From: Candidatus Eiseniibacteriota bacterium
GTDB lineage: Bacteria; Eisenbacteria; RBG-16-71-46
Direction of reading: 5' to 3'
Assembly (NCBI GenBank): GCA_025360715.1
Contig: JANYBS010000073.1
Span: 3,048 to 67,047, forward strand
DNA length: 64,000 nt
A program made the translations under genes and the position numbers. The notes beneath the pieces are model-generated. The model saw only the letters and a program-made list of their open reading frames with translations, was not told the origin of the DNA and did no database searches. Below are positions 1-26,995 of this stretch, one piece after another; positions within the stretch are counted from its first letter, which is position 1, and each line of letters starts with the position of its first letter.

Positions 1-3000
1 AGCATGACCGCGCTCCGAGCGAAAACCACCTTGCAGAGGTCATAGATGGACCTCTCCGGAGATAGTTGAGCCCCATACGTCGAGACCTGATCGGCAAGGA
101 AGCGGGACATGAGCGCGCGCACCTTCGCCTCTTCGAGCCCGATACCTTCGGGCGAGACCTGCTTGTCGTCCCCGACCACGAGCAGCTTCTTTGCACGAAG
201 CAGTGCTGGCAAAGCTGTCAGATCGGACTGAGATGCTTCATCGATGATCACTAGATCAAAGATGCCCAGCTCGGCTGGAAGGGATTCTGAGACGCGGTAG
301 TGCGCCATGATCCAGCAGGGCACGGCCGTGCTCGCCTTGTCGGCCGCAACTTGGGCGTCCTTGCGGTAACGAATCGCTCGTTTGCCAGAGCCGGTCCCTC
401 CACGAAGTTTAAGGATCGCGGTGAGGTAGGCCGCCAGGGCGGCCTTTGTGCTCGGGGAAGCGTTCTCGGCCAAGCGTAGCCATGTGCGCTTCACTACAAC
501 CATCTCGTAGGACTTCGCCAAGTCGCTCGCTGCAACTTCGCGCTTGGCGGAGAACTCACGAAGTTGTTGGGCGCCCTCAATCGAATCGAGATGAGTGGCC
601 AGTCGGCGAAGTCGCCACTTCGACCTCCAAGTGGAGGGCAGCAGGGGGTCAATCGTCCCAAGCATGGGTTTGCGAAGCTCCTCTGCGAGCAGGGGAGCGC
701 CGGAGGCCGAAATGCTCTCAGTAACTTCAGCGACCGTGTTGAGGTGCGTGGAGAGGCCGTGAACACGAGACAGCTCTGCCAAGAGCTCAGACCAGGCAGT
801 CTGCATGTCTGTGTCGAGCAGCTCGGGACTACCAAGCTGCGCGGAAATGAACTGCCTGAGCGACTGGCTTATGGCGCCACGTCTCGAGGTCAGGACATCA
901 AGGCACTTCTCCTTGTTGCTCCAAGTGCTCTCGAGCCTGCGTCTTGTTAGGTGATGATTTAGGTAGGCGGCGAGTGAATCGAGCCCTTTCGTACCGTCCA
1001 GTATTTCGGCGGAGAACTGTACAGACGGAAACAGAGTGGTGGCATCCGCAAGACAAGAGGACTCAAGCTCGACGAGTGTTCGAATTCGCCGCAGAAAGTC
1101 GATTGACCTGATCGCGGCGAGGCCATCGTCGGCGCCTTCGCCAGACAACCGCTGCAAAGGGAGCTCTGAGGCAAGCGCATTCCAACGGATCGATATCGCA
1201 GACAGGGCGGTACGCACACTGAGGTAGCTTTCGACGTGCTCCCACGCTTCAACGTCCTCGGGCACACGTCCCAGTACTCTAATGCTCTTCAGCCGGTTCT
1301 TCTGCTCCGACTTGCCGAGCAAGCCGCTCAGCCCGAACGCGCGCTTGCCCTCGGAAAGGCGCCCTATGGCTTCCGTAAGATCACTGTCGAATTCGGCCCC
1401 TTCGGGGAGGAGTACAGGCCGCGAGAGTAGTGCGGTGTGCCGGGCGCCCACTCGACTTGCTTCCGCCTGAAGTGCGTCAACTTCACCAAGAAGCTGGTCA
1501 AGCCCCCCCGTCCTCAGTTTCGAGCGTACGTCTTGGCGCCAGTCACTCTCACCGGTCAAGAGCTCGGCTCGTTCTGTGCGCAGTTGGCGAGTCCTCTCGG
1601 CGAGTTCATGCGCAAGCGTGAAGACCTCATCATCTCCGCCGGCGAGCACTGGAACGTCGCCCGAAGCAACCTCGCGCTTCAGCCTCTCGTGCTGCGAGAG
1701 ATCCTGATGCACTGACAGCATTGTGCGAGGGTCGGGGAAATCCGCGCCGAGGGGTAGCGAGGCCCCGAGGTATCCGATGTCCACGCCGAGCTCGCGCCTT
1801 GCTTCTCGAAGTCGTGTCACCTCGACATCGCCAAATTGCGGCGAATGTTCGCTACCGACACCGATCAAGTCAGGCAACCAGCCGAGGTAGTCCAGGCTGT
1901 CTACGACTTGTCTCGCGGCCTCCTCCGGCCGAATGGTCTCACCATCGAGCTCGATGTTGGTGAGATTACGAGTTGCCCAATCGGTGACTTGGTGATCGAT
2001 TGCCGATAGCTGGCCATGCAGGCTCTCGATGCGGGCGTCGAGGTCTCGGATGTCCTTCTGCGTTGCAACGCGATCGAGGCTTTGAACCTCGGCGGCGATC
2101 CTGTTTACCGCGTGCTCGAACTGCTGGAGTCCCTGGTGCTCGCTGCTAAGTAGTGAGATCGCGAGTGGGCGGATGTCGGGAGGCAGCTTCTCCTGAACCT
2201 CTTTAAGGGCCGGGTCCTTCATCGATGTGACCAGCACTCGCTTTCCAAGCGCGAGGTAGTGACAGACCACGTTGGCGATTGTGTGCGTTTTCCCGGTGCC
2301 AGGAGGGCCCTGCACTACAACGCCGTCTGACTTCTCGAGCAGCTGGATAATTCGAATCTGCTCGGCATTGTAGGGTTTGGGAAAGTACAACTCCTGTGGG
2401 GTAGAACCCCTCGGACTGCTGGAGTATGCCCCACGAAACGCAGGGAGCTCAGGGTCCGAGGCATCTTCCGAAGGTTCCGTGACCAGTTCCGCCACTGCTG
2501 CGGGGAGGTCACTCGCTTCCTCGGTCCTGGATCGCAGCTTGAGCAGATCCTCAATCAGTATGCTTGCCGTCCGGGGGCGAGCAAACAGCACCCACGTGTC
2601 CGTTACTCGAAGATTCCGCTCGGCCTTCGGAACAGATCTGTCACCCGGTTGAGCATGCTCGGGCCAATACGCGCCGTGGTCGTGCAAGTGCGTGCTGGCG
2701 GAGCGAAGTACTGGCTCAAAGGTGCCTCGGTCGAAAGGCGAGAACGTGGTTGTGGCCGCGCCAAAAAAGGTCTTTGCTGCCTGCTCAAGGTCCCCTACGC
2801 CGGCGCCCTCGAGGTGCGACGCCCATTCCAGCTCCAGGCGCGCGCCGGCTTCGCGCGGCCGGACTTCAAGTCGGGCGGAATCGCGATCGATCGAGATCTC
2901 AACTCTGCGCGTAATGAGAGGGTACATGACTGTTCCTTCGGGCAGCTCCCAACTGGCCACCCCGACACCCCAGACAAGCTCCATTGGCGTGTCACCGACA

Positions 3001-3554
3001 TTTCCCGCTTGCTGCTGTTGGACCTTGAAAAGCTGCGAGTAGAGCTTGATTGCTTCTCTGCGGAGTCGCTCGGCTCGTGCCCACGGCTGCCACTTCGTGT
3101 CAATGTACTGCGTCAACTGACCACGAACCGCTGGAGCATTCAGGAAGCTATTCATAGGGACTGTGGCGTCCGGGGTCACGCTAGGAAGGGCCGAACGACT
3201 TCTGTCCCTAGAAGACCGATGAGTTCCGGCCGCGATCAAGTCTGAGCCAAGGATAGAAACCGACAGCTCTGGCTGCTTGTCGGGTCCAGCGTGGAGCACC
3301 AGCCACGGCCTCAAGACGGGACCGACGTCCTTGGGAGGGCGGGTTTCGTGTAGGCGCTCGACAACAAGCCATCGCTCGTCGGAGTTTGAATCCGCATCTG
3401 CGTTCAGTGCGACGCCCGGGAGGGTTCGGACCTGCGCTTCCCAGAGCACAAAGGCTTGGTACCCAGCGACCGTGAGGGCGGGGCGCGATCGAAGACGCGC
3501 AGAGTGCTGCGCGAAATCGATAATCGAAAGCAGGCGGTCCTTCTCAATGCCCAT
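1..3554 (-). CDS. Large SF1 (Upf1/AAA_11-AAA_12-like) helicase, N-terminal ~1184 aa; C-terminus lies beyond the window start
   Basis: My own minus-strand translation is open from an ATG at 3552-3554 (in-frame stop at 3663-3665 upstream; GGAG about 10 nt before the ATG) down to position 1. Motif Q/I is ...[31 protein letters not shown] encoded near 2290-2400. Walker B and motif III are ...[37 protein letters not shown] encoded near 120-260. The six-frame track does not list it because the stop is off-window. The plus-strand ORFs across 446-3245 are antisense artefacts. Confidence 0.7.
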
Positions 3555-3722
3555 TGGGCTTGGCTCCGAAAGCGCCGGTGCTTCGTAGTGTCTTTCCGCC
3601 GGCCGGCAGAGGGCGCAGAGTTGGCAGACGTGAGGGAAGGAAAGCTGTCGAGGCGGGCAAAGTCAAGAAGGCACGCCGGGCCTCCGAATCCTCAGCGCGT
3701 GGTATCCGAATCCAGCCTATAC

Positions 3723-3887
3723 CGCGAGAGCCAAGTTGCCTGCGAATTCCTTCGAGGCACGCGTGCATGCCGCTACGAGCCCGAGATCCAGCGCAGCTAC
3801 GAGGAGCTGGCACGCCACTACGGCACGGTGATCCTGCCCGCGCGCCCGGCGCATCCGCGTGACAAGGCCAAGGTCGAGGTGGAGTAG
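3723..3887 (+). pseudogene. IS21-family transposase IstA fragment (remnant)
   Basis: The tail of ORF 3456..3887 reads ...[40 protein letters not shown]. This matches, from memory, the conserved PRDKAKVE (DDE catalytic-E) region of IS21 IstA. Only about 50 aa are present, with no istB and no N-terminal domains. Confidence 0.4.
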
Positions 3888-4270
3888 CCCCGATTTCGTG
3901 GACGGTTGAGGACTGCGGGGGTTGGCTGCCGCGCCTTGCTGCGATCCTTCGTGAGCAGCGCGAGCGCACGTCGGCATTCGAGCGCGAGGCAGGGCAGGTG
4001 GTCCGCTGGGTCTTCCATCGCAACGGCCACCAGGTTGGCGACTACAGCGACTCGTGGGGCACGGCGTGCAAGAAGGCGGGAGTCCCCGGCCGCCTGGTCC
4101 ATGACCTGCGCAGGACCGCCGTGCGCCGCCTCGAGCGCGCGGGCGTGCCGCGGTCGGTCGCCATGAAGCTGACCGGGCACAAGACCGAGAACGTCTACCG
4201 CCGCTACGCGATCGTGTCGGAGTCCGATCTTGCGCTCGGGGTCGCCAAGGTGGCTGCGCTGGACGGCGCG
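3863..4270 (+). pseudogene. Tyrosine recombinase (phage-type integrase) C-terminal fragment, N-terminally truncated
   Basis: The frame opens right after the stop at 3860-3862, and the track ORF 3998..4492 starts at a GTG. The sequence ...WLPRLAAILREQRE...GRLVHDLRRTAVRRLERAGVPRSVAMKLTGHKTENVYRRYAIVSESDLALGV carries the HxLRHT-like box and the catalytic Tyr region of integrases. The N-terminal ~250 aa of a normal integrase are missing. The ORF tail 4270-4492 shows no integrase similarity and runs into the tRNA. Confidence 0.55.
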
Positions 4271-4435: not shown

Positions 4436-4511
4436 TGGCGTCCCGAACGGGATTCGAACCCGTGTCGCCGCCGTGAAAGGGCAGTGTCCTAGGCCTCTAG
4501 ACGATCGGGAC
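4436..4511 (-). tRNA. tRNA-Glu (anticodon UUC), 76 nt with encoded CCA
   Basis: The reverse complement reads GTCCCGATCGTCTAGAGGCCTAGGACACTGCCCTTTCACGGCGGCGACACGGGTTCGAATCCCGTTCGGGACGCCA. The cloverleaf folds with anticodon loop CTTTCAC and a GGTTCGAATCC T-loop. It is near-identical in pattern to E. coli tRNA-Glu. Confidence 0.9.
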
Positions 4512-4599: not shown

Positions 4600-5259
4600 C
4601 TATGCGCCGGCACGCTCGATGCGGGTGTTCAGTTCGAACCGGCATGCGGGCCGCTCGCCGTGCGTGCAGCGCGTGGTCACTTCGGCGCCTACAGCGGCGC
4701 TCACCATGCGGCTTGCAAGTTCGCACGCATCGGCGTGGTCACGCGTCACGTCGCCCAGCGGGCAGTCGTGGCAGCCGATCGTGATTCGGCCGTCGTGGGT
4801 CTCTACTTCTGCGGCGCCGCCTAGCACGGCGAACGCAGCGCGCGCGGCGTCCAAACGTTCTTCCAGCGCCGCGTAGGCAGGGGTTTCCACTGGCAATCGT
4901 GCGGCCACGGCGGCCAAAAAAGCGGTGCGTTCGGCAGCCGAGAAGCGTGCGCGCATCTCTTCGAGGATGGCGCCGATCACCACCGCGTGGCCCTTGGGGA
5001 ACAAGGCTTCTCCGGCGGGGGTCAGTGCATAGATGGCCGAGGGCTTTGCGGCGCTGCGCCGCATCTCGCGCACTTCAGCAAGGCCGTCGCGCTGCAGGGC
5101 TGCAAGGTGCCCGCGCACTGCGTTGCCGGTCAGGCCAAGCGCACCGGCAAGCTCCAGCACGGTGCGCCCGCTGCCCCGCAGCAGCGACAGCAGCGTGGCC
5201 TTCGTACCGCGAAGTGCATTCGTTCGCATAGCTTTGGGCGGACCTTTCGAGCGACTCAT
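4600..5259 (-). CDS. ArsR/winged-helix-type transcriptional regulator with a Cys-rich C-terminal (putative metal/redox-sensing) domain
   Basis: Track ORF of 219 aa. The N-terminal HTH region is LLSLLRGSGRTVLELAGALGLTGNAVRGHLAALQRDGL. The C-terminus carries ...GCHDCPLGDV...C...C...C. It is divergent from the DUF4142 gene. Confidence 0.55.
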   Translation of the reverse strand: MSRSKGPPKAMRTNALRGTKATLLSLLRGSGRTVLELAGALGLTGNAVRGHLAALQRDGLAEVREMRRSAAKPSAIYALTPAGEALFPKGHAVVIGAILEEMRARFSAAERTAFLAAVAARLPVETPAYAALEERLDAARAAFAVLGGAAEVETHDGRITIGCHDCPLGDVTRDHADACELASRMVSAAVGAEVTTRCTHGERPACRFELNTRIERAGA

Positions 5260-5280
5260 GAGCGGCAGTTTGGCACATGC

Positions 5281-5335
5281 ATCAGCTTAAAAACAAGTAA
5301 AACAAGAAAAACATTGATTTACATCTCTAACCATG
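5281..5335. promoter_or_regulatory. AT-rich divergent promoter region between the regulator and the DUF4142-cupredoxin operon
   Basis: cagcttaaaaacaagtaaaacaagaaaaacattgatttacatctctaaccatgc is a striking AT island in a ~70% GC background. It contains TTGATT/TTTACA -35-like hexamers. Confidence 0.35.
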
Positions 5336-5418
5336 CGACACTCGCGATCGCGACGGGGCAGGGGACGCCCACCCATCGCGATCCCCTTGTCGTCCGCTCT
5401 TCTCGTTTGGAGGCTCAC

Positions 5419-5985
5419 ATGTCGCGCTTCTTCCTTCGTTCTCTGCCCGCTGCAATGCCCGCCCTCGCTGCCCTCGCTGCGCTCAGCCTCGTGTTGGCCG
5501 GCCCGCTGCATGCCGCTCCCGCCGCTGCGTCTGCGCTCAGCGATGCCAATATCGCTGCCATCGTGCTTGCGGCGAACACGATCGACATCCACAACGGCGA
5601 ACTGGCCACCAAGCGGTCGCACACGAAAACGGTGCTCGAGTTCGCGCATCGCATGACCACCGACCACGCCTCGGTCAACGCCAAGGCCGTGGCGCTGGCG
5701 ACCAAGCTTTCGCTCACGCCGGTCCCCAACGCGGCGAGCCGCAGTCTTGTGCAAAGCACCGATGCGACACGCGCCAAGATGAGCCGCTTGCGCGGCAGGG
5801 CGTTCGATCGCGCGTACATCGACAACGAGGTCGCCTACCATCAGGCGGTGCTCGATCTACTCGATCACACCATCGTGCCCGCGGTGGAGAATGCCGAGCT
5901 CAAGGACCTGCTGGTCAGTGTGCATCCGGCGTTCGTCGCGCACCTCGAGCACGCGAAGATGGTGCAGGCGGAACTCGCCAAGTGA
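5419..5985 (+). CDS. Secreted DUF4142-family protein
   Basis: ATG at 5419 with GGAGG 6 nt upstream. The signal peptide is MSRFFLRSLPAAMPALAALAALSLVLAGPLHA. The body shows a DUF4142-like pattern (...EFAHRMTTDHASVN...FDRAYIDNEVAYHQAVLDLL...). The track ORF 4987.. is an N-terminal over-extension. Confidence 0.6.
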   Translation: MSRFFLRSLPAAMPALAALAALSLVLAGPLHAAPAAASALSDANIAAIVLAANTIDIHNGELATKRSHTKTVLEFAHRMTTDHASVNAKAVALATKLSLTPVPNAASRSLVQSTDATRAKMSRLRGRAFDRAYIDNEVAYHQAVLDLLDHTIVPAVENAELKDLLVSVHPAFVAHLEHAKMVQAELAK

Positions 5986-6934: not shown

Positions 6935-8819
6935 GCAGCAGCACGCGACCTTCCTTGATCAGGTTGCGGCGCATCAGGTCGGTCGCGGCGGCTTCGGCGC
7001 TCGCTTCGTCGGTGTAATTGCCGATCACGATCCGGTACATGGTCGTGGAACCGTCCTTGTACGCGACCACGCGGCCCGTCTCCTCGGTCGCGTCGCTCAA
7101 GCGGGCGCGTTCGGTGTCTGCGCGGTCTTGGTCCAGGAACGCGCCCACGGCGATGCCGTACACGCGCAACTCCGCGGGCTTCGCGGGCACGGGCGTCGTG
7201 GCGGGCTTCGCGGCCGCGGCCGCAAGCGTGTCCTTCTTGGGTGTCGTCGTTGCGGCGGTGCTCGCCCGCGTCATCGCCTGCGTGCTATCGCTCGCCGCCG
7301 GCGCAGGCGTCATCGCGGCCTTCGGCGCCGGCACCATCGCCTGACCCGGCGCGGGCAGCGTGCTGCTCGCGCTCGCACCACCGACACCGCGCAGCGGCGG
7401 TAAGTCGATCACGCCAAAGCGCTGCGCCAGTACCAGGCCGATCGCGATGGCGGCAACAAGTGCGACCGCCATGATCACCGGTAGCGGCGAGCGCTTCTCG
7501 GCGTCATCGCGCGCGATGTCGGCTTCGATCTTCTCGCGCAGGCGCGGCGGCAGGTGGCTCAGGTCGGCACGCTCGGGATCTGCGGTCTGGCTGCGGTCGA
7601 GCAACTCCTGCGTGCCCGGAAAGCGCGGCACCATGTCCGACACGGGTTCCTCGGGCTCGATCGACAGCGGCGCGGCGGGCGTCACCGACGACTGGGCCAC
7701 CTCGCGCTTGCGCGCCTCCAACAAGTCGCGCGCGGCGACGGTCCAGGCGTCGACCTCGGTGCGCTCGATCACATCGACGGGCGGCGTCACTGAAACGGAC
7801 TTGGGCGCAGCGGCTGGCGGTGGCGGCGCTTGTGCAGGCGCGGTCACTCGCGGCTCGCTCTCGCGCATGAACTCGGGCGGTGTCCACACAGGCGCGGGCG
7901 CTTCGGGCTCGCGGCGCACCGCCGCCAGCGGGGCCGAATGCTCCAACGCCGGCGGTGTCATATCCTCTTCCTCTGGCAACTTCGCTTGCTCGCCGCCACC
8001 GAGCACGCTGCGGAACTCGGCCTCACGCGCGACCGATTGCACGTGCTCGGGCCGCACAGTGGTCACGCCCTCGGCGTACGCGGTGAGCAGCGCGTGCGAC
8101 GCCACGGTGTTGATCTCGCGCGGGATGCCATGCGTGAGCCGATACACCTCGCGGCACGCATCGGGCGGGAACGTGGACCATGCATTGCCGCCCGCCACCG
8201 AGATGCGATGGTGGATGTAGCCCGCGGTCTCCTCGGGCGAAAGCGGGTTCAGTCGGTAATGCACGGTGATGCGCTGGCGCAGCTGGCGCAGGTCGGGGCG
8301 CGCGAGTTTGGCTTCCAACTCCGGCTGGCCCACGAGGAATATCTGCACCAGCTTCTCGCCAGTGGGAGTCTCCAGGTTCGACAGCAACCGGATCTCTTCC
8401 AAGAGCCCCGGCTCCAGGTTCTGCGCCTCGTCCAGCAGCAGCACGGCGTACTCGCCGCGCGCGCGCACAGTGCTCAGGTGGCGCTCGAGCAGTGCGAGCA
8501 TCTTGGGCTTGCTCGAGCCTTCGGGCAGCGCCACGCCAAAGCGCAGGCAGATTTCTTCGAGCAGCTCTGCGCGCGTGAGCGCCGAGTTCGTGATGAGCGC
8601 CACGCTCACCTGCGCGCCCCATTCGGCGAGCGCGTCATACAACGCTGTGGTCTTGCCGGTGCCGACCTCGCCAGTGATCAGTACGAAGGGCTCGCGGTTC
8701 TCGATGCCATAGCGCAGATGCGCGCGGGCCTCCTGGTGCTCACGGCTCGGGTAGAGGAACCGGAGCTGGTGACCACCGGGAAAAGGATTCTCGCGCAGTC
8801 CGAAGTGAGGTTCGTACAT
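6912..8819 (-). CDS. ExeA/GspA-like AAA ATPase fused to a low-complexity Pro/Ala-rich linker, a TM segment and a C-terminal SPOR (peptidoglycan-binding) domain
   Basis: N-terminus MYEPHFGLRENPF...FVLITGEVGTGKTTAL...LLLDEAQNL (AAA_22/ExeA). TM segment PVIMAVALVAAIAIGLVL. C-terminus YGIAVGAFLDQDRADTERARL...YRIVIGNYTDEASAEAAATDL is SPOR-like. Confidence 0.7.
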   Translation of the reverse strand: MYEPHFGLRENPFPGGHQLRFLYPSREHQEARAHLRYGIENREPFVLITGEVGTGKTTALYDALAEWGAQVSVALITNSALTRAELLEEICLRFGVALPEGSSKPKMLALLERHLSTVRARGEYAVLLLDEAQNLEPGLLEEIRLLSNLETPTGEKLVQIFLVGQPELEAKLARPDLRQLRQRITVHYRLNPLSPEETAGYIHHRISVAGGNAWSTFPPDACREVYRLTHGIPREINTVASHALLTAYAEGVTTVRPEHVQSVAREAEFRSVLGGGEQAKLPEEEDMTPPALEHSAPLAAVRREPEAPAPVWTPPEFMRESEPRVTAPAQAPPPPAAAPKSVSVTPPVDVIERTEVDAWTVAARDLLEARKREVAQSSVTPAAPLSIEPEEPVSDMVPRFPGTQELLDRSQTADPERADLSHLPPRLREKIEADIARDDAEKRSPLPVIMAVALVAAIAIGLVLAQRFGVIDLPPLRGVGGASASSTLPAPGQAMVPAPKAAMTPAPAASDSTQAMTRASTAATTTPKKDTLAAAAAKPATTPVPAKPAELRVYGIAVGAFLDQDRADTERARLSDATEETGRVVAYKDGSTTMYRIVIGNYTDEASAEAAATDLMRRNLIKEGRVLLLSKSPAR

Positions 8820-8975
8820 CGGCGTCTTCCGTGGGTCCGGGAAACTACGAAGGCGTGGGGCCGGAATGGTTATCGGCGCCGGGCGGGGCGCGCTTGCGCG
8901 TCACATTTTCGCGGCGATCTCAGCCCGGGAAAGCAGCGGGACACACGCCCTGGGCCTGCGTCCCGCGCGATGGCC

Positions 8976-9530
8976 TCACTTCTCGGCGGGGAGCAACTCG
9001 TTGATCGTGAAAAGGGACGTATACGGATAGCCGCGCTGCTGGAAGATCTGCGGCGCACCCTGACTGCGGTCAACGACCGCCAGCACGCGCACGACCTCGG
9101 CCTTGTACGACTCGGCGGCCTCGGCGGCGATCAACGCGCTCTCGCCGCTGGTGATCACGTCGTCCAGGATGGCGATGCGCTTGTGGCCGGCAAGGTTGCC
9201 CTCGACCTGGCCGCGCATGCCGTGATCCTTGGCGCTCTTGCGCACCAGAAAGCCCTCGAGCGGCTTGCCCTGCTCGAGGCTGTACCACATGAGCCCGGCC
9301 ACCAGAGGATCGGCGCCAAGGGTAAGCCCGCCGATAGCGGTCACCTCGTCGGCCAGTAGCTGCTCCCAGAACAGGTGGGTGATCAGGCGGAGCCCTTCGG
9401 GGTGCAGGCTCGTCTTGCGCACATCGATGTAGTAGTTCGAGGTGGCGCCGGAACTAAGCACGAATTCGCCGAAGCGCATGGAACGCTCGAGGATGATCTG
9501 GCGCAGGCGGTCACGATCGGTCGTGGACAT
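8976..9530 (-). CDS. pyrE: Orotate phosphoribosyltransferase
   Basis: From the internal ATG at 9530 (MSTTDRDRLRQIILERS...). The PRPP-binding motif is RIAILDDVITSGESAL. The track ORF 8976..9668 is over-extended upstream. Confidence 0.85.
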   Translation of the reverse strand: MSTTDRDRLRQIILERSMRFGEFVLSSGATSNYYIDVRKTSLHPEGLRLITHLFWEQLLADEVTAIGGLTLGADPLVAGLMWYSLEQGKPLEGFLVRKSAKDHGMRGQVEGNLAGHKRIAILDDVITSGESALIAAEAAESYKAEVVRVLAVVDRSQGAPQIFQQRGYPYTSLFTINELLPAEK

Positions 9531-9738
9531 AGGCTCCGCGTGGGGTTGAGGCTGGTCGCGCGCGCGCTGGCCGGGTGACCTGCGCGCACCGGTATCGAGA
9601 AGCGATTCGGCCGGAGTGTGCGTACCTTCGCGCGGGCCGTCAAGCGCACGCGGTGCGCTGTGGCGCAACGGCTTGCCGCCGCGCTAGACTTGACGCCAGC
9701 ACCACATCCCGAGTGTCCTTCCGGCTTCCAAGGAACCC

Positions 9739-12700
9739 ATGCAAGCTCATCCCACGCGACTTCATCCGATCGCCCTGCTGCTGCTTGGCCTGCTGCTGGT
9801 ACCGCCGCTGCCCGCGTATGCTGCGCGACTTGCGTTACCTGTGGCCGTGGCCGGCGCTCCCGCGCCCGCGGCGCCGTACTTTGCGGGTGACCGCCTGCTC
9901 GTGCGCCTGCGCCCTGCGGCCTCGCAGTTCCTGAGCGCTCGCCGCGCGGGGCCCACGCGCTCGGGCTTGCAGATGCGCTCGGGCCTCAACTCGCTCGATG
10001 CGGTGGCGGCCTCTCTGGGCGGCGCCACATTCGAGCCGGAGTTCGTGGGCGAGCACGCGCCGGATCCCGCGAGCGGCGATACACTCGACTTCAGCGCGTT
10101 CATGATCGTGCACATCCCCGAGGGCGCCAGCTTGGAAGCCGCGCTCGAACGCTTCGCGGCCTCGCCCGATGTGATGAGCGCAGAGCCGATTCCCATCACG
10201 CGCACATCGGCGCTGCCCAACGACTCGCTCTTCGCGCAGCAGGTATGGCTGCACAAGGACATCCTGCCGCGAGTCGACAACCGCGTGCTCGATGCGTGGA
10301 GCGTCGAGCAAGGCGATACGAACATCGTGATCGGCGTGGTCGACACGGGCATCATCCCGTACCACCCGGATCTCGGTGGGATCACGGCAGGGCTCACGGG
10401 CAACATGTATGTGAACCGCGCCGAGGCGGGCGGCCTGCCGGGAGTGGACGACGACCACAATGGCTTCATCGATGACGTGGGCGGTTGGGACTTCGTCGCC
10501 AATGCGAGTGCCGCCAGTGCCGCAACCGGCGAGGATTGGCGCGACCAGGACAACGACCCGAACGACTTCGCGGGCCACGGCACCACGGTGGCCGGCGTGA
10601 TCGGCGCGTTGATCGACAACACCATCGGCATGGCGGGCATGGTGCCCAACGCGCGGCTCATGCCGCTGCGCATCGGCTGGCAGCCCGCCGGCGGCACCCC
10701 GCCCAATGGTGACGTGAGCATGGACTACGCCGCGCAGGCGATCCGCTACGCCACGCTCATGCATGTGCAGGTGCTCAACTGCTCGTTCAGCTCGTTGTTC
10801 CTTTCCAGCCTCGACGCCGCAGTCACTGCGGCCTCACGCGCGGGCACGGCGCTGGTGGTGGCATCGGGCAACGGCAATGACCCGGCATATCTGGGCCAGC
10901 GCGAAGATGTGATCGCCGTGGCCGGCGTGGACTCCAGCGACGTGATCTGGCCCGGCTCCGTGCTAGGCGCGTGGGTCGATCTTTCGGCCGATGCCACGGG
11001 TATCGTTTCCACGTTCCTCAAGCGCACGACGCCCGACTCTGTCGGCGCGCGCCAGCCGAGCTATCGCGGATTCCTCAACGGCACCTCTTACGCCGCGCCG
11101 CAGGTGGCGAGTGCGCTCGCGCTCATGCAGGCGCAGCGCCTGCATCAGGGCCGCGTGCCTTACACGGTCGCGGGCGCGGTCATGCGCCTGCGTGAGACCG
11201 CCGACGACATCAGCGCGCTCAACACGGGCACGGGCTATGGCGCGGGCCGGCTCGATGTGTATCGGGCGTTGACCGATCGCACGGGTTCGCTGGCGGTGCG
11301 CACGCGCTCGCGGCAGGTGGGACCGCCCGTGATCCTGCGCGAGAACACCGGGCGCTCGCGCATCCTGATCGCGGCGAACGACAAGACGCTGGTGGCTTAC
11401 GACGGAGCCTCGGGCGATACCCTCTGGCGCGTGGTGCTGCCGGCGGTACCGGCGGGCGACATGGCCGCAGCGCCGATCGGCGCGGGCGTGGTCGGCGTGT
11501 TCATCCCCACTGCGAACGGCCGCGTACTTGGCTATACCAGCGACGGTGTCGTGCTTGCGGGATGGCCGCAAGTGGGCACGTCGGGCCAGCAGATGACGGG
11601 CGGCGTTGCGCTCGGCGACCTCGACGGCGACGGTCTGCCCGAAGTGGTGTGCAGCGCGGTCGATGGCCGCGTCTTCGCATGGCATGCGAACGGCGCGCTG
11701 CTCGCGAACTTCCCGTTCGACATGGGCGTGATCGGCTCGGGCGTGCCGGCGCTGGGCGAGCTCGACGGCGTGCCCGGCGACGAGATCGCGATCGTTGGCG
11801 GTGACAATCAGGTGCACGTGATCACGCAAGCGGGCATCGAGGCGCCAGGCTGGCCCATCGCCGCGCCGCCGGGTACGCGCGCGCCGGTGATCGCGCGGCT
11901 CGGCCACGCGGGTCCGGTCGCGCTGATCGTGGGCGGCAATGGCAGCATCACCGCGTATCGCGGCGATGGCACATCGCTCTGGACGCGCGCGTTCACGGGC
12001 ACGCTGGGGCAGGACCTGGCGCTTGGCGACCTCGACGGCGATGGCGCCGACGAAGTCGTCTATGTGACGGGCGGGCCCACCACGGTGAGCGTGTGCGATT
12101 CGGCGGGTGCGGTTTTCAGCAGACAGAACTGGCCGCTCACACCCACGGGCACGCCAGCCGGCGCGCTTGCGATCGGACCGCTGCGCGCCGGGCACAACGC
12201 GGGCGTGTGCTGGCTGCAGTCCACCGGGCTGGTGGCGTATGACGACAGTGCGCAGGTGGTGCGGTGGGTGCCCAAGAGTGGGATCGCGGGCGTGGCTCCG
12301 GCGCTTGCCGATCTCGACGGCGACGGCGCGACCAAGATCGTGGCGGGCATCGCGCTCGCAGATTCCAACTTGTATGTGTACGACGCGGGCGCGGGCTCAT
12401 TCGATGCAGCCAAGCTCGGCTGGCCGACGCCGCGCGGCGACGAATCGCGGCGTGCGAATCACGCCTCGCCGCCGCTGCTCGGCGTGATCGATCGCATCCG
12501 GCCGGCGCGCGTGAACGATCTTGTGGCGCAATCGCTCACCACCACGAGCGCGCGAGTCACTTGGACCATGACGGGCGACGACAGCCTTGCCGGCGCGGCG
12601 AGCGCCACCGAGTTGCGCTACGCCGCTTTCCCGCTCGATGCGAGCAACTTCATCGCGGGGCAGCGGGTACTCGCAACGCCGGTGGGCGCGACTGGCACGC

Positions 12701-13452
12701 GCGATACCGTGCTGGTGAGCGCTCTCGCCGAAGGGCAGCTCTACTACTTCGCGCTGCGCGTGAGTGACGCGGCGGGTAATCTGAGCGCCGTTTCGAACGT
12801 GGACACGGTCGCCATGGCCGGGGTGGCGCCGGCAACGGTGACGGACCTGCGCGTGACGGTGCAGGCCGACACGGCGGCCGCCCTCACGTGGACCGCGGTG
12901 GGCGATGACGGCAATGTGGGCCGGCCGGCGAGCTACACGATCGCCGCAAGCCTGGCACCGGTCGCGCTGGCGACCTTCGACGCATCGGCGCGATTGCTCA
13001 CGGTGGCGGCCACAGTGGATGCCGGCGGAACCGAACACGCCACCCTGAGCGGCCTCACGCGCGGTGAGCGCTGGAACTTCGCGCTGGTCGCGACCGATCA
13101 CACGGCGACGCGATCAGGACTCTCGAACCCCGTGGCGCTGATCCTGCCTGTGGGCGGCGCGCTGCGCGGCCACCTGGGCGTGGCGGTCGCTCAGCACACG
13201 CGGCCGTCTGGCGTGCCGGTCGTGCTGGACTGGCAGGGCGCGGCGGAAGCCGTCGGCACTCCGCAGACGCTCTCGATCCACGATCTCTCGGGCCGCATCG
13301 TGCGGAGCCTGCTGCTTGGCACCGCGGCAGGCGGTTCGGTGAATTGGGACGGCCGGGATGGAGAGAGTCGTCTCCTCCCGGCCGGTCTATACTTTGCGCG
13401 CCTGAGCAGTGGTGGCTTCCACGCTCAGACGCGCATCGTACTGGTCCCTTGA
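9739..13452 (+). CDS. Secreted subtilisin-like S8 serine protease with FG-GAP-type repeats, FN3 domains and a T9SS type-A C-terminal sorting domain
   Basis: Signal peptide present. Catalytic triad blocks: VGVVDTGI (Asp), HGTTVAGVIG (His), GTSYAAPQVASALAL (Ser). Repeated LGDLDGDGxxEVV motifs. C-terminus ...LSIHDLSGRIVRSLLLG...LPAGLYFARL...RIVLVP is a Por_Secre_tail. Confidence 0.85.
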   Translation: MQAHPTRLHPIALLLLGLLLVPPLPAYAARLALPVAVAGAPAPAAPYFAGDRLLVRLRPAASQFLSARRAGPTRSGLQMRSGLNSLDAVAASLGGATFEPEFVGEHAPDPASGDTLDFSAFMIVHIPEGASLEAALERFAASPDVMSAEPIPITRTSALPNDSLFAQQVWLHKDILPRVDNRVLDAWSVEQGDTNIVIGVVDTGIIPYHPDLGGITAGLTGNMYVNRAEAGGLPGVDDDHNGFIDDVGGWDFVANASAASAATGEDWRDQDNDPNDFAGHGTTVAGVIGALIDNTIGMAGMVPNARLMPLRIGWQPAGGTPPNGDVSMDYAAQAIRYATLMHVQVLNCSFSSLFLSSLDAAVTAASRAGTALVVASGNGNDPAYLGQREDVIAVAGVDSSDVIWPGSVLGAWVDLSADATGIVSTFLKRTTPDSVGARQPSYRGFLNGTSYAAPQVASALALMQAQRLHQGRVPYTVAGAVMRLRETADDISALNTGTGYGAGRLDVYRALTDRTGSLAVRTRSRQVGPPVILRENTGRSRILIAANDKTLVAYDGASGDTLWRVVLPAVPAGDMAAAPIGAGVVGVFIPTANGRVLGYTSDGVVLAGWPQVGTSGQQMTGGVALGDLDGDGLPEVVCSAVDGRVFAWHANGALLANFPFDMGVIGSGVPALGELDGVPGDEIAIVGGDNQVHVITQAGIEAPGWPIAAPPGTRAPVIARLGHAGPVALIVGGNGSITAYRGDGTSLWTRAFTGTLGQDLALGDLDGDGADEVVYVTGGPTTVSVCDSAGAVFSRQNWPLTPTGTPAGALAIGPLRAGHNAGVCWLQSTGLVAYDDSAQVVRWVPKSGIAGVAPALADLDGDGATKIVAGIALADSNLYVYDAGAGSFDAAKLGWPTPRGDESRRANHASPPLLGVIDRIRPARVNDLVAQSLTTTSARVTWTMTGDDSLAGAASATELRYAAFPLDASNFIAGQRVLATPVGATGTRDTVLVSALAEGQLYYFALRVSDAAGNLSAVSNVDTVAMAGVAPATVTDLRVTVQADTAAALTWTAVGDDGNVGRPASYTIAASLAPVALATFDASARLLTVAATVDAGGTEHATLSGLTRGERWNFALVATDHTATRSGLSNPVALILPVGGALRGHLGVAVAQHTRPSGVPVVLDWQGAAEAVGTPQTLSIHDLSGRIVRSLLLGTAAGGSVNWDGRDGESRLLPAGLYFARLSSGGFHAQTRIVLVP

Positions 13453-13484
13453 AGATGTACTCGAGCTGCACGTGAGCAGCTCTT

Positions 13485-13511
13485 GGCGCGGGCGGGTGCT
13501 TGACCCGCGCC
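13485..13511. terminator. GC-rich hairpin between convergent genes (candidate bidirectional terminator)
   Basis: GGCGCGGG (13485-13492) pairs with CCCGCGCC (13504-13511) around an 11-nt loop. It lies between the S8 protease stop (13452) and the minus-strand lipoprotein stop (13515). Confidence 0.45.
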
Positions 13512-13514
13512 GCA

Positions 13515-14209: not shown

Positions 14210-16267
14210 ATGCAATGGCAACCCACACGGGCCATTGCGACCTGCTTGGCAACAGGGCTGGCTTTGGCGCTCTCTGCGGTGGCCGGGTTCGCCGCCCCAG
14301 CGCCGCCGCATGCCCCAGAGTTGGGCGCGGCGTTCTTGCGCGCGCCGCTCGCCGGCGCCTTGGTGATCACCGACGGCTTCGGCGCGGTGCGCAGCAACCA
14401 CTTCCACGCGGGCGTCGACCTATCGACCGGCGGCCGCGTGGGCGCCGATGTCTTTGCGCCGCTGCAATGCACGCTCGTGCGCGTGCGCGCGTCGGGCGCT
14501 GGGTACGGCCGCAGCCTCTATCTGATGTCGGGGGACGGTCGCATGATCGTGTTCGGCCACCTGGATGCCTTTGCGCCCGCTGTCGCGGCGTACGTGGACT
14601 CCGCACAGCGCGCGAGCGGCCGCTACGAGCAGGACCTGCAGCCCGCGCCCGGCCGGTTCGCTTTTGCGGCCGGTGAACGTGTGGCGTGGAGCGGCGAGAG
14701 CGGCGATGGGCCGCCGCACCTGCATATGGAAGTGCGCCATGGTGATTTCGCGTTGCATCCGCTGCTCGCGGGACTCCATATGGATGACCGCGATCCGCCC
14801 GTGCTTGATGCGCTCACGTTGGAGCCGCTCGAGGCGGGCTCGTTCGCGCAAGGGCTGGCGTCGCCGGTCACGCGCGCGCTTACGGGCATCGCGGCCGAGA
14901 CGCTCATCGTGCAGGGCCGCGTTCGCGCGGTCGTGCGCGCACACGATGTGATGGGTGCCGCCACGGCGCTGCCGCCGTGGTCGGTGCAGATGGACTACGC
15001 CGGGCAGACGACCACCGCAGCGTTCGACTCGATCTCGTGGGATGGCGAGATGTCGCAGCTGGGCATGGTGATCGACCGTGGCCGCATCGCGGGCGGGGAC
15101 GGAGTCATCCTCGACGCGCCCGAAGGCGTGCGCCCGCGATTCCTGAGTGGGGGAGATCCCGCTGCAGCAAGCAAGCGCTTGGGCGTGATCGCATTGCAAG
15201 CCGGCGAGCCCGCGCGTGCGCTCACGCTCACGGTGTGGGACGCCGCAGGCAACGCGGCCACGCGCAAGATCTACCTGCGTGGCCCGCGCGCGGGTGAGGG
15301 GCCGGACACCACGCAGGCACATGGCCTCAAGCCGCCGGTGGGCGCACCGCGCTGGACGTACGCGTCGTTGCCCGACAAGTGGGTGCGCGTGCGCGTGTCG
15401 AACGTGCCTGCCGGGCTCATGCAAGCGCGCATCGAGCGTGGCCGCGACAGCGACGAGGGCCACGCAGCCACGTGGGACGGCAGCGGCTGGAGCGCGCTCG
15501 TGCGCTGCAAGGGTATACCCGATGAAGATGGCTTCTGGTTCAAGGCGAAAGACAAGACCGGCAAGGCGTGGTGGACTCGCGGCAGCGTCACACTCTGGCC
15601 CGCGGGCGCCGATCTGCCGATCGACCAATCGCCACTCACGCGTGTGTCGCTGCTGCCCACGCGCGTGTTCGAAGGTGGCGTGGTCATGGGGGCGCTGCGC
15701 ACGGCTGTGAGCGCGTCCAAGGGCGAATGGCATGCGATGACGCCGGTGGTCTCGCTCGAGCCCTCGGACTGGCCGCTCGCACAGACCGCCACGGTCACGC
15801 TCAAGGCGCCCGACGGCATGGCGCTCGATCACCTGGTCGCCGCGCGGCGCAGCGGCGATGGCGAGACGTGGGAGTGGGCCAAGTCGACTTACGACGCCGC
15901 AACGCGCGTATTCACCATGGAGAGCGCGAGCTTCGGGCAGTTCGCGCTCATGCACGACACCACGCCGCCGCGCGTGACGCCGCTGACGCCGCCGCGCGTA
16001 GCGCTGGCCGGTGCGTACTCGCGCTGGGCGCTCACGGCCGCGGTGAGCGATGCCGGTAGTGGCATCGACCGCGAGACGAGCGCGTTCCAGGTGGACGGCG
16101 AACGCGTGCCCACCGAGTACGATGCCGAGGCGCACGTGCTGCGGTGGCGGGCCTTGCGGCCGCCGGCCGCCGGCCGCCACACCTACACCGTGGAAGTCGC
16201 CGACCGGGCGGGGAACCGCACGCGGAGCAGTGGTGTCTTTGTGCTAGATTCGGCGGCACATCACTAA
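14210..16267 (+). CDS. Secreted M23-family (LytM-type) metallopeptidase with a large C-terminal extension
   Basis: Signal peptide MQWQPTRAIATCLATGLALALSAVAGFA. The sequence contains HFHAGVDL and GESGDGPPHLHMEV (the HxxxD/HxH motifs of M23). Confidence 0.75.
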   Translation: MQWQPTRAIATCLATGLALALSAVAGFAAPAPPHAPELGAAFLRAPLAGALVITDGFGAVRSNHFHAGVDLSTGGRVGADVFAPLQCTLVRVRASGAGYGRSLYLMSGDGRMIVFGHLDAFAPAVAAYVDSAQRASGRYEQDLQPAPGRFAFAAGERVAWSGESGDGPPHLHMEVRHGDFALHPLLAGLHMDDRDPPVLDALTLEPLEAGSFAQGLASPVTRALTGIAAETLIVQGRVRAVVRAHDVMGAATALPPWSVQMDYAGQTTTAAFDSISWDGEMSQLGMVIDRGRIAGGDGVILDAPEGVRPRFLSGGDPAAASKRLGVIALQAGEPARALTLTVWDAAGNAATRKIYLRGPRAGEGPDTTQAHGLKPPVGAPRWTYASLPDKWVRVRVSNVPAGLMQARIERGRDSDEGHAATWDGSGWSALVRCKGIPDEDGFWFKAKDKTGKAWWTRGSVTLWPAGADLPIDQSPLTRVSLLPTRVFEGGVVMGALRTAVSASKGEWHAMTPVVSLEPSDWPLAQTATVTLKAPDGMALDHLVAARRSGDGETWEWAKSTYDAATRVFTMESASFGQFALMHDTTPPRVTPLTPPRVALAGAYSRWALTAAVSDAGSGIDRETSAFQVDGERVPTEYDAEAHVLRWRALRPPAAGRHTYTVEVADRAGNRTRSSGVFVLDSAAHH

Positions 16268-16338
16268 GCGCACGCTCCGGTTCTGGACCTGCGTCCGGTC
16301 GTCCCCACCGTCGCCACCGCCTCGCGCAGGACGCGCCC

Positions 16339-19300
16339 ATGAAGCATTCCGATTTCGTTCATCTGCATAACCATAGCGACTACTCGCTGCTGGATGGCGC
16401 TTCGTCCATCCAGGGCATGGTTCATCGTGCCGCCGAGCTGCAGATGCCCGCGCTCGCGCTCACGGACCATGGCGTCATGTTCGGTGCCATCGAGTTCTAT
16501 AACGAGGCGCGCAAGGCCGGCATCAAGCCCATCGTGGGCATGGAAGCCTATGTCACGCGCGGTGCGCGCAGCGCCCGCACTCGCGACGACAAGGCGCACC
16601 ATCTGGTGCTGCTCGCTCGCGACGAAGTGGGCTTCCATAACCTGATGCGGCTCTCGAGCCTGGCGTATCTCGAAGGCTTCTATTACAAGCCGCGCGTGGA
16701 CCACGAGATCCTGAGCCGTTTTTCACAAGGCATCCTCGCGCTGAGCGCGTGCCCGCAGGGCGAGATCGCCGCGGATCTCTTGGATGATCGCGACGAAGAG
16801 GCGCTCAAGACCGCGATGATGTATCGCGACATCTTCGGGCCCGAGAACTACTTCCTTGAGATCCAGAACCACGGCCTCGAGATCGAGACCAAGATCCGCG
16901 GCAAGGTCGAGCAGCTCGCACGCAAGACGGGTCTGCCGCTCGTGGCCACGAACGATTGCCACTACATCGGCAAGGACCACACCGAGGCGCAGGATGTACT
17001 GATCTGCATCCAGACCGGTAAGACGGTCAGCGAAGCGCAGCGCATGCGCGCACTGGCCGAGCTGCACTTCCGCACGCCCGACGAGATGCGCCTCGCGTTC
17101 CCGGATCATCCCGAAGCGATCGCGAACACGCTCGCGGTCGCGGAGCGTTGCAACCTGCAGCTGCAGCTGGGCAAGTTCCTGCTGCCGGAGTTCCCGTTGC
17201 CCGAAGGGTGGGCGAGCGCCGAGGAGTACTTTCGCGACCTGTCGTGGCGCGAACTCAAGGAGCGCTTCCGCGGGCAGGTGACCGACGAGAGGAAGACGCG
17301 CTTCGCGTACGAACTCGACGTGATCTGCAAGATGGGCTTCGCGTCGTACTTCTTGATCGTGCGCGACTTCATCAACTACGCGAAGTCGAACGGCATCGGC
17401 GTCGGCCCGGGCCGTGGCTCGGTGGCCGGTTCGCTGGTGGCCTTCGCGCTGCGCATCACGGATGTGGATCCGCTCAAGCATGGCCTCATCTTCGAGCGCT
17501 TCCTGAATCCGGAGCGCGTGACGATGCCCGATATCGATATCGATTTCGACGATCTTCGCCGCGGCGAAGTCATCGACTACGTGAAGCGCAAGTACGGCGA
17601 GACCAACGTCACGCAGATCATCACCTTCGGCACCATGGGCGCCAAGGGTGTGGTGCGTGACGTTGGCCGTGCGCTGGGCTTTCCGGTGGCCGAGGTCAAC
17701 TCGATCGCCAAGATGGTGCCCGATGGCCTGGGCATGACGCTCGAGCAGGCGCTGCAGGATTCGCCGGACTTGAAAGCGCTGCCCTCCAAGGGCGCTGACT
17801 ACGCGAAGCTGCTCAAGACCGCGCGCGTGCTCGAGGGCCTGGCGCGGCATGCGTCCACGCACGCGGCTGGTGTGCTGATCACGCCGGGGCCGCTGCTCGA
17901 CTATGTGCCGCTGTATCGCCAGAAAGACGGCTCGACCACGACCCAGTGGGATATGAAGTCGGTCGAGAAGGCGGGGCTGCTCAAGATGGACTTCCTCGGG
18001 CTGCGCACGCTGAGCGTGCTCGCCGAGGGCCTGCGCTTGGTGGAGAAGCACCACGGTCAGGTGATCGATTGGCAGGCGCTCGAGTTCGACGATCCGGCGG
18101 TCTACAAGCTCTTCCAGGAAGGCGACACGGTCGCGATCTTCCAGTTCGAGTCGCCGGGCATGCGCGACTACCTCAAGCGACTCAAGCCGACGGTGTTCGA
18201 GGACCTGGTCGCGATGAACGCGCTCTACCGCCCGGGCCCCATCGAGAACATCCCTTACTTCGTCGATTGCAAGCATGGCGTGAAGATCGCGAAGTATGAC
18301 CACGCCAAGCTCGAGCCGATCCTCAAGGGCACCTACGGCGTGTTCGTCTACCAGGAACAGGTCATGGGCGCCGCCCACGACCTGGCCGGCTTCTCGATGG
18401 CGCAAGCAGACGAGCTGCGCCGCGCCATGGGTAAGAAGAACGTCGAAGAGATGCAGAAGAAGCGCACCCAGTTCATCGAGGGCTGCGCGAAGAGCTCGAG
18501 GATCTCGGAGAAGGTCGCGGACAAGATCTTCACGACGATGGAGAAGTTCGCGGGCTACGGGTTCAACAAGTGTGTTTTAGAGAAAACGGAAATATTTAAT
18601 TTCGATACTGGTGAGAGAACCACGGTAGGCGAACTTTTCCGCAGCAAGCGCGAGTTCCATATTCACGCACTCGACAATCAATGGAAGTTGGTCCGACGCG
18701 CCGTGACCGACGTGGTGTGGAATGGGGTGAAGCCGGTCTTCGAGTTGAAGACCCTGCTCGGCCACCGCATCACCGCAACGTCCAATCACCCGTTGCGGAC
18801 ACTCGATGGATGGACCGACCTGGGAGACCTGAAGCCCGGGGACCACATCGCAGTCCCGCGCCGACTGGATATCGCCGGAGATCTGACCTGGCCGCGGCAT
18901 GAGATCATCACGCTCGCCGGATTGCTCGCTGAAGGCAATACCTGTCATCCTTCGACACTCTACTTCTACGGAAATGATCGCGTGCTCGTCGAAGATCTCC
19001 GCGACGCGGTGGCTTGCTTCCCGGATACGGTTGCGCGCATCCACGATCGCGGAGACGGTCGACTCGAGGTAGCGGCGAACCTCGGTGCCGGGTATGCCCG
19101 AGAGGGCGATGAAGCAGGCTGCGGGCTCGCTTCGCTGCACGGCAATCTCGCAGTAGTGATGGAAGCGTTGCCGCGCCGTTGCGGCGCATTCCAGTGGGCA
19201 CAACGTTTGGGCATCATCGGGAAAAAGGCGACCGAGAAGGTCGTGCCGCCGGACGTATTCCGATTGTCTGAAGCAGATCTGGAACTGTTTGTTGGACGGC

Positions 19301-22311: not shown

Positions 22312-22479
22312 ATGGCACTGAGTCCCGAGCTTCTCAACATCCTGGTCTGCCCCGCATGCAAGGGTGATCTTGCCTACGACACCACCGCGCAGACGCTCAC
22401 GTGCAATGCCTGCCGGCTCAAGTACAAGGTCGTCGACGATATCCCGGTCATGCTCCCCGAAGAGGCGGAGAAGTTCTGA
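22312..22479 (+). CDS. Trm112/UPF0434-family small zinc-ribbon protein
   Basis: 55 aa: [60 protein letters not shown] sits 6 nt upstream of the ATG. The track ORF 22093.. is over-extended. Confidence 0.6.
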
Positions 22480-22502
22480 CCCCCTCGGGTCGGGCGACCG
22501 CG

Positions 22503-26888: not shown

Positions 26889-26995
26889 AACACCCACTCG
26901 AGAGTTTTTTTCGGGAGAAATCCAAAGCGTCGCGGTGTAGTACCCCGGGCAACGTCTCCCGCTCGCAGGGTTCGCGATCTCTCAGAGGAGTATCT

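Follow-up and report, generated by a model that had tools for sequence, protein, structure and literature searches.

A putative stand-alone helicase-nuclease with a split RecA1 domain, encoded on a tRNA-Glu-bounded island of a Candidatus Eiseniibacteriota bacterium, is probably a defence protein

The stretch of DNA analysed here, referred to below as the window, comprises 64,000 nucleotides of a Candidatus Eiseniibacteriota bacterium (GenBank assembly GCA_025360715.1, contig JANYBS010000073.1, positions 3,048 to 67,047 of the forward strand). At its first base it cuts through a reverse-strand gene coding for a large superfamily 1 (SF1) helicase, of which the first 1184 codons are visible. The frame is uninterrupted from position 3662 down to base 3, and the start codon is an ATG at 3554, which is preceded by GGAG and gives an N-terminus matching the homologue consensus MSxERDRLLSL. 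An earlier reading of the same DNA, made from the sequence alone and called the sequence-only reading below, had placed the missing domains upstream of the window; it is instead the downstream, C-terminal part of the protein that lies outside.

The visible protein contains an Upf1-like SF1B helicase core. All motifs of the Upf1-like RecA1 domain that can be expected in this part, namely Q, I (GxxGTGKT), Ia (residues 439-450), II (DEAxQ) and III (GDxxQ), are present and intact (Table 1). Motifs I and II are exactly 685 residues apart and 415 residues precede the Walker A motif; on these figures and on the motif coordinates the sequence-only reading was correct, and it was also right to call the spacing unusual. 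The two motifs are separated by ~158 residues in IGHMBP2, the closest solved relative, and by ~150 positions in the profile of MkoA, a protein of the Mokosh system, and the fragment therefore contains ~530 additional residues. In agreement with this, the Pfam family AAA_11 matches the fragment in two separated stretches (E 4.6e-16). Profile positions 2-139 align to residues 396-519, and the columns of the first part of RecA1 are invariant in an alignment of 111 sequences. Altogether, 3885 proteins match the fragment, with homologues covering 100% of it at 47-55% identity, and the best 120 of the 3885 all have 100% coverage at 50-54% identity. Because AAA_11 is matched at this significance in split form and the best of the 3885 homologues extend over the whole fragment, the match is not due to chance.

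Table 1. Location of the features discussed in the text. Positions refer to the window unless another locus is named; residues are those of the helicase fragment or, for the intein-bearing gene, of its product.
Feature	Position	Strand	Residues	Basis
Putative helicase-nuclease gene, 5' part (1184 codons), leaves the window at base 1	1-3554	-		open frame and motifs
N-terminal alpha/beta domain, no family model	2475-3554	-	1-360	AlphaFold and conservation
RecA1, first part: Q-motif (N396/Q399), Walker A, motif Ia	2145-2369	-	396-470	AAA_11 and alignment
Walker A (motif I)	2280-2309	-	416-425	motif reading
All-alpha module, ~600 residues, between motif Ia and the strand before motif II	321-2144	-	471-1078	AlphaFold and cluster search
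Glycine-rich loop GGTGSGKR	378-401	-	1052-1059	
RecA1, second part: motifs II and III	3-320	-	1079-1184	PADLOC and NCBIfam helicase profiles
Motif II, LVIIDEASQ	228-254	-	1101-1109	motif reading
Motif III	150-179	-	1126-1135	motif reading
IS21-family istA transposase remnant, ~50 codons	3735-3881	+		tblastn, 63% identity to annotated istA, E 3e-13
Tyrosine recombinase (integrase), C-terminal half only, 5'-truncated	4001-4216	+		Pfam Phage_integrase 93-168 of 172, 27.6 bits, E 3e-6
tRNA-Glu (TTC), 3' end toward the integrase remnant	4436-4511	-		ARAGORN
ArsR-type helix-turn-helix open reading frame	4600-5259	-		
DUF4142 open reading frame	4987-5985	+		
dnaE (DNA polymerase III alpha)	16144-21123	+		
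Intein within dnaE	~18604-19920	+	821-1259 (Intein_splicing); 1049-1126 (LAGLIDADG_3)	Pfam
C25 (gingipain/PorU-like) peptidase with FlgD_ig, then PorV	22401-27946	+		
Split homologue, locus L003	9953-14598			open reading frame listing
Split homologue, locus L007	10001-14138			open reading frame listing
Split homologue, locus L010	10320-14815			open reading frame listing
Family member WP_000653919.1, plasmid p3ABAYE (L023, NC_010404.1)	8782-13512			plasmid context

The additional residues form an all-alpha module, which interrupts RecA1 past motif Ia and ahead of the strand that leads to motif II. In an AlphaFold2 model of the 1184-residue fragment, calculated with an alignment, residues 472-1077 are nearly all helical, with predicted local distance difference test (pLDDT) values of 80-93. 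The mean pLDDT of the whole model is 77.5 and its predicted template modelling score (pTM) 0.37, and therefore the single domains are modelled well while their placement relative to each other is uncertain. About 28 helices, each 5-37 residues long, and two small hairpins make up the module, and when predicted in isolation it reaches a pLDDT of 85.9 and a pTM of 0.57, with all five models at 82-86. The sequence-only reading had proposed a large coiled-coil or accessory domain embedded in the RecA1 domain of an AAA_11 helicase. The split AAA_11 match and the ~600-residue module bear out the embedded accessory domain. A canonical coiled coil is not evident from the model with its helices of this number and length. 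In Upf1-like helicases, domain 1C is inserted between motif Ia and motif II of RecA1. Going by general knowledge of Upf1 structures, the module would occupy the topological site of this domain.

When residues 525-1045 alone were searched against 1.84 billion cluster representatives, the module was matched in at least 515 clusters (formed at 50% identity) at E<=1e-3, and in 123 at E<=1e-30. Most of these matches span query positions 2-520 at 22-43% identity, and in full-length matches of 1500-1900 residues the module falls at ~520-1060. Since the matches run end to end and at a constant position, the module is an ancient part of the family with a fixed length. It is present in 98% of 68 diverse members, and conserved W, P, G, R and D residues are dispersed over it, as they are over the N-terminal domain. 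At its end, just before RecA1 resumes, lies a glycine-rich loop, in and next to which G1053, G1055, G1057 and R1064 are conserved in at least 85% of the 68 members; the pLDDT is low there.

The module alone has no match among the Pfam, NCBIfam or PADLOC models at E<=1, and it matches no PDB sequence, as sequence and profile searches found helicase cores only. A Foldseek search of the isolated module against the PDB gave nothing significant (best E 3e-3, template modelling (TM) score 0.12); with the whole model as with the isolated module, all matches were generic helical or SMC-like ones at TM scores of no more than 0.12. Profile-profile comparisons of segments revealed no internal repeats in the insertion or the N-terminal domain (probabilities <10%). 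Foldseek ranks SMC, Rad50, SbcC, MukB and JetC proteins first, with an E of 4e-4 for the PDB and of 3e-6 for viral models, at probabilities of up to 0.99. What is shared with these proteins is that long helices break up a P-loop fold. However, SMC/Rad50-type proteins have an ABC-type head and an antiparallel coiled-coil arm, on which the model does not superpose, whereas the protein studied here has an SF1 helicase with motifs Ia and III, and its helices of 5-37 residues do not form continuous arms. With TM scores of 0.05-0.12, root mean square deviations of 40-80 A and motifs of the SF1 type, we rejected homology to SMC, MukB, JetC, Rad50 or SbcC; the SMC-like matches, including those to viral SMC/SbcC models, would be a topological analogy at most.

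A second part of the protein without a family model is the N-terminal alpha/beta domain. Taken alone, it has no Pfam, NCBIfam or PADLOC match at E<=1, residues 1-380 match nothing in NCBIfam or PADLOC, and no PDB sequence matches it. Pfam detected neither a HEPN nor a transglutaminase domain in the N-terminal part of the fragment or of its homologues. The domain is modelled with a pLDDT mostly of 70-92, contains one helix of 45 residues, and is present in 93% of the 68 diverse members, among which W62, R67, W155, W158, E162, W202, W321, R326 and D336 are conserved.

As no relative with more than 55% identity was found, we infer the C-terminal third of the window gene from homologues. Full-length homologues have ~1770 residues and consist of the unannotated N-terminal region, the split AAA_11, AAA_12 (~1184-1355), MTES_1575 (~1399-1492) and a variable tail. 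AAA_12, which represents RecA2, was found in every full-length homologue looked at. MTES_1575 (PF18741), a Vsr-type restriction endonuclease family overlapping with DUF559, is matched with E values of 1e-27 to 1e-31, and the nuclease signature RIDMVVEG...AVECDGDKYHG, with its acidic residues D, E and D, hardly varies across the 111 aligned sequences. The tail matches DUF3320 weakly, and some members carry a GreA/B C-terminal domain or a zinc ribbon. MTES_1575 has been described as a restriction endonuclease of the Vsr fold and DUF3320 as winged helix-turn-helix domains that follow an SF1 helicase (Anantharaman et al. 2013, PMC3710099). The part of the window gene beyond base 1 would thus hold RecA2 (AAA_12), a Vsr-type PD-(D/E)xK endonuclease (MTES_1575) and a variable tail of the DUF3320/winged helix-turn-helix type. 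AAA_12, DUF3320 and a PD-(D/E)xK nuclease had been anticipated from the fragment alone, and all three appear in the full-length homologues. The accompanying comparison with DUF4011/AAA_11 helicases held for AAA_11 and for the long spacing, which is also seen in the profile of the DUF4011-containing protein Hhe (~935 positions). DUF4011 itself was absent from the fragment (E<=1) and from three full-length homologues (E<=0.01).

The helicase gene lies at the edge of a region of foreign composition. Its guanine plus cytosine (GC) content is 60%, with 0.67 at third codon positions (GC3), in comparison to a GC content of 67-70% and a GC3 of 0.75-0.90 for the neighbouring core genes, and the GC fraction climbs from 0.60 to 0.69 across positions 3500-4000. 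This interval is followed by a tRNA-Glu gene, and between the helicase and the tRNA gene lie the remnants of an IS21-family transposase gene and of an integrase gene, the latter with the HDLRRT sequence and the region of the catalytic Tyr still recognizable in its translation. Past the tRNA gene, core genes such as ribA, the intein-bearing dnaE, accA and genes of type IX secretion follow. A boundary tRNA gene, an adjoining integrase and a shift in composition, by which tRNA-associated islands are recognized, are thus all present, and tRNA-Glu is likely the integration site of the island and the boundary of the core chromosome. Given the low GC content, the IS21 remnant, the truncated integrase and the tRNA-Glu gene, the helicase gene is the last gene of a foreign island. 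No second attachment-site copy of the tRNA 3' end is present within the window. The mobility genes of the island have decayed, and it looks immobilised. The visible flank upstream of the helicase gene contains mobile-element debris and the tRNA gene only, with no methyltransferase or nuclease gene, and a promoter search gave a single promoter-like match, which lies inside the coding region and provides no usable evidence.

A few observations concern the chromosome beyond the tRNA gene. The ArsR-type and DUF4142 reading frames overlap on opposite strands, and across the overlap no more than one of the two can be real. The intein in dnaE carries a LAGLIDADG homing endonuclease, and the GC fraction there is 0.615. 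Large FG-GAP/subtilase proteins are encoded near the C25 peptidase and PorV genes, and judging from these genes the host appears to carry a type IX secretion system despite its GC content of 67-70%, a combination that by itself would point to an FCB-group or Gemmatimonadota-like bacterium.

Across genomes, the neighbours of the helicase gene vary. No neighbouring open reading frame is common to 13 species-genome loci, which stem from genomes including Beta- and Deltaproteobacteria, Acidobacteriota, Chloroflexi, Bacillota and Zixibacteria. Among these 13 loci, helicase copies from different phyla are 57-95% identical, which indicates horizontal spread. In five annotated contexts and on two plasmids the neighbours are different each time. 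One context contains an Hma-like SNF2/DUF1156/DUF499-HEPN cluster together with ParE, AbiU2, GmrSD, RepA and transposases, another one ArdC, a resolvase, insertion sequences, HigB and PIN, a third RmuC, HEPN, IS21 and PemK, and a fourth ParE, other toxin-antitoxin pairs and a DDE transposase. The family was found on 83 plasmids, 22 of which are conjugative and 24 mobilizable, and no phage-borne copy was detected in 50,697 phage genomes. On plasmid p3ABAYE of Acinetobacter baumannii AYE, the family member WP_000653919.1, annotated only as an AAA domain-containing protein, is encoded directly behind a complete BREX-1 operon, 64 bp past its brxL gene, and another copy adjoins a BPTD_3080-type restriction endonuclease gene on a conjugative Sphingobium plasmid. 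The p3ABAYE plasmid lineage is a clinical one, and numerous isolates of A. pittii and A. baumannii carry it. The analysis shows the architecture and conservation of the protein, and also that its gene is mobile and has no fixed partner.

We propose that the gene codes for a stand-alone helicase-nuclease defence protein of ~1770 residues, the first two-thirds of which are visible, and that it resides on a horizontally acquired island at the tRNA-Glu gene; we give this reading a probability of roughly 65%. On its own, the protein would be an enzyme of innate defence that acts on invading DNA. Its motor might load onto structures in phage or plasmid DNA and would then translocate along single-stranded DNA in the 5'->3' direction, driven by ATP. 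The N-terminal domain and the helical module might sit above the nucleic-acid channel, similar to domains 1B and 1C of Upf1, and serve as a substrate sensor or a gate, and the fused nuclease would cleave the DNA after the motor has engaged. A mechanism of the same logic has been put forward for Hhe, where the substitution E1731A in the Vsr nuclease domain abolishes defence (bioRxiv 10.1101/2022.06.16.496414).

Several observations speak against this proposal. The nuclease of the window gene itself would lie beyond base 1 and is known from homologues alone, and no relative exceeded 55% identity among 185,579 species genomes or 54% among metagenome contigs. The scores against ProA and Hhe, the two named anti-phage proteins most similar to the family, are far below the cut-offs of their models and come from the common helicase-nuclease core, and neither the N-terminal domain nor the insertion matches a defence model by itself. 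In the fifth annotated context, the gene is surrounded by redox genes with no obvious defence neighbour. Of the 11 full-length genome loci, three have the homologous gene broken up into two or three open reading frames; these may be real pseudogenes or indel errors of metagenome assemblies, and some copies may be decaying. Lastly, it is only from their position that the sensor or gate roles of the N-terminal domain and the module are suggested. With its place at the edge of a foreign island and its relation to anti-phage proteins, the gene is a plausible candidate for a defence gene.

Other explanations have to be weighed against the conserved architecture and the changing surroundings of the gene. 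The protein could be one subunit of a multi-gene system, accessory to a BREX, Hma or restriction-type system, for instance, with its partners encoded downstream and outside of the window. The downstream side of the gene indeed lies beyond base 1, and some homologues are found directly beside BREX-1, the Hma-like SNF2/DUF1156/DUF499 cluster or the BPTD_3080-type restriction endonuclease. We consider this unlikely, as the systems next to it are complete known systems by themselves, motor and effector are fused in a single chain, and the 13 loci, the five further contexts and the two plasmids have no neighbour in common. A methyltransferase or nuclease partner, as suggested by the sequence-only reading, is not conserved beside the homologues, nor is one seen in the visible flank. 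We rate as similarly unlikely that the protein serves the mobile element rather than the host, be it in competition between plasmids or islands, in an addiction-like role or in processing of the element's DNA. The frequent plasmid location, the absence from phage genomes and the proximity to relaxase/MobC, ParAB, RepA, ArdC, resolvase and transposase genes would fit such a role. However, there is no constant link to a replication, transfer or partition gene, and the closest named relatives are anti-phage proteins. The mobile context as such does not discriminate between the two explanations, because defence genes are typical cargo of such elements.

The proposal that the gene codes for a working defence protein must also be compared with two further possibilities. 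In this genome the gene might be an inactive relic of a decayed island, a view for which one could point to the truncated integrase and the IS21 gene, of which only ~50 codons are left, as well as to the three homologous loci with split genes and to the 3' third of the window gene, which lies beyond base 1. As 1184 codons are open, all visible catalytic motifs are intact, the invariant residues of the family are kept and a plausible ribosome-binding site and start codon are present, such a decay seems improbable. Least probable of all, in our opinion, is a housekeeping helicase-nuclease for DNA repair or replication, analogous to Dna2, RecD2 or AddAB. An SF1B core combined with a nuclease is also found in Dna2, and one homologue adjoins RmuC and another lies among core metabolic genes. 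On the other hand, RecD2 and RecD were rejected at ~26 bits each, in comparison to cut-offs of 500 (TIGR01448) and 310 (TIGR01447). Moreover, the family occurs patchily among phyla and reaches 95% identity between classes, its contexts vary, and the gene in the window has a foreign composition and lies beyond the tRNA/integrase boundary. The sequence-only reading had named a RecD2-like family with a conserved chromosomal context as the finding that would overturn it, and neither the match nor the context was seen.

A much bolder idea concerns the helical module. Instead of acting as a passive spacer, it might form a mechanical stalk-and-cap or an SMC/Rad50-like arm, which dimerises or clamps DNA and is coupled to the ATPase site in the split RecA1 domain, so that the helicase-nuclease would sense DNA topology or DNA ends by a mechanism undescribed for SF1 helicases and, together with the N-terminal domain, this would set the proteins apart from Hhe and ProA as a new defence family of their own. 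We regard this as a long shot.

The window alone is of limited value, because the gene is truncated at its edge and we infer its function. The family as a whole is large, with the 3885 matches and at least 515 clusters containing the module spread over many phyla and reaching clinical Acinetobacter plasmids. Single-gene helicase-nucleases such as Hhe are known to work, and how they recognize foreign DNA is not understood. In the family described here, the N-terminal domain and the module together account for ~960 of the ~1770 residues. For neither of them is there a family model or a solved structural relative; both are well conserved and confidently modelled. If the family defends, these two parts would be obvious candidates for the sensor, and the split RecA1 domain would lend itself to the study of allosteric control in an SF1 motor.

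Comparison with known proteins places the family close to single-gene anti-phage helicase-nucleases. The closest solved helicase cores, by sequence and fold, are those of IGHMBP2, Upf1, Sen1 and Dna2, which all belong to SF1B. In contrast to the protein studied here, they have a spacing of ~150-160 residues between motifs I and II, act as RNA or replication factors and lack a Vsr nuclease, and the similarity is restricted to the motor. Mokosh MkoA and MkoC are matched in PADLOC through core stretches only, and the spacing in MkoA is normal. A Vsr-type nuclease following an SF1 helicase and followed in turn by a DUF3320/winged helix-turn-helix tail is shared with MTES_1575-type proteins, which are composed of HEPN, transglutaminase, SF1 helicase, Vsr nuclease and two winged helix-turn-helix domains (PMC3710099). 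However, the HEPN and transglutaminase domains of those proteins were not detected in the family described here.

The best PADLOC match is PDC-S37 (PADLOC v2, PDLC05009), a computational candidate, which the fragment matches at an E value of 8.6e-30 and a full-length homologue at 4.5e-76. The homologue matches profile positions 295-421 and 702-1532 of 1550 (~60% covered), the latter with its residues 859-1756, so that this match begins late in the insertion; the N-terminal domain and the insertion of the window protein alone give no match. The best NCBIfam match is ProA, the 'anti-phage protein ProA' (NF058533), with 105 bits for the fragment, 239.5 bits (6e-71) for the homologue P0003 and 210-276 bits for five distant family members, at a cut-off of 1500. 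Residues 412-1737 of the homologue align to profile positions 662-1899 over helicase, nuclease and tail, and the motif I-II spacing is comparable (~635). ProA differs in having its own distinct region of ~600 positions ahead of the helicase, and the window insertion alone does not match it at E<=1. No paper describing ProA or PDC-S37 was found in the collection of literature searched.

A further relative is Hhe (HheA), a single gene that protects against lambda, T3, T7 and PhiV-1 (bioRxiv 10.1101/2022.06.16.496414), and for which the T7 DNA-metabolism genes g1.4-g2 and g2.8 have been named as potential triggers (bioRxiv 10.1101/2024.10.10.617714). Like the family described here, Hhe is a single chain of ~1800 residues that joins an SF1B helicase (AAA_11/AAA_12) to a Vsr-type nuclease and has a tail of the DUF3320 type. 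The PADLOC model (PDLC02194) is matched with E values of 2.8e-13 by the fragment and 3.7e-32 by a full-length homologue, and the NCBIfam model (NF042953; cut-off 2000) with 69.9 bits by the fragment and 149 bits (1e-43) by P0003, of which residues 1054-1495, from motif II through the nuclease, align to profile positions 1232-1683. Hhe differs by its N-terminal DUF4011, which is lacking here, and by its wider spacing, and neither the N-terminal domain nor the module of our protein has detectable similarity to the Hhe model. With PDC-S37 at ~626 positions, ProA and Hhe at the values given above and only MkoA at a normal distance, the long split is therefore a trait common to this group of helicase-nucleases.

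Taken together, by the curated criteria the family falls outside Hhe and ProA and yet follows the same building plan. The concept of a single-gene helicase-nuclease in defence is already familiar, and what seems distinct from the known models are the sequences of the inserted module and the N-terminal domain. Judged from these comparisons, the family is best described as a widespread, uncharacterised sister family of the single-gene anti-phage helicase-nucleases Hhe and ProA.

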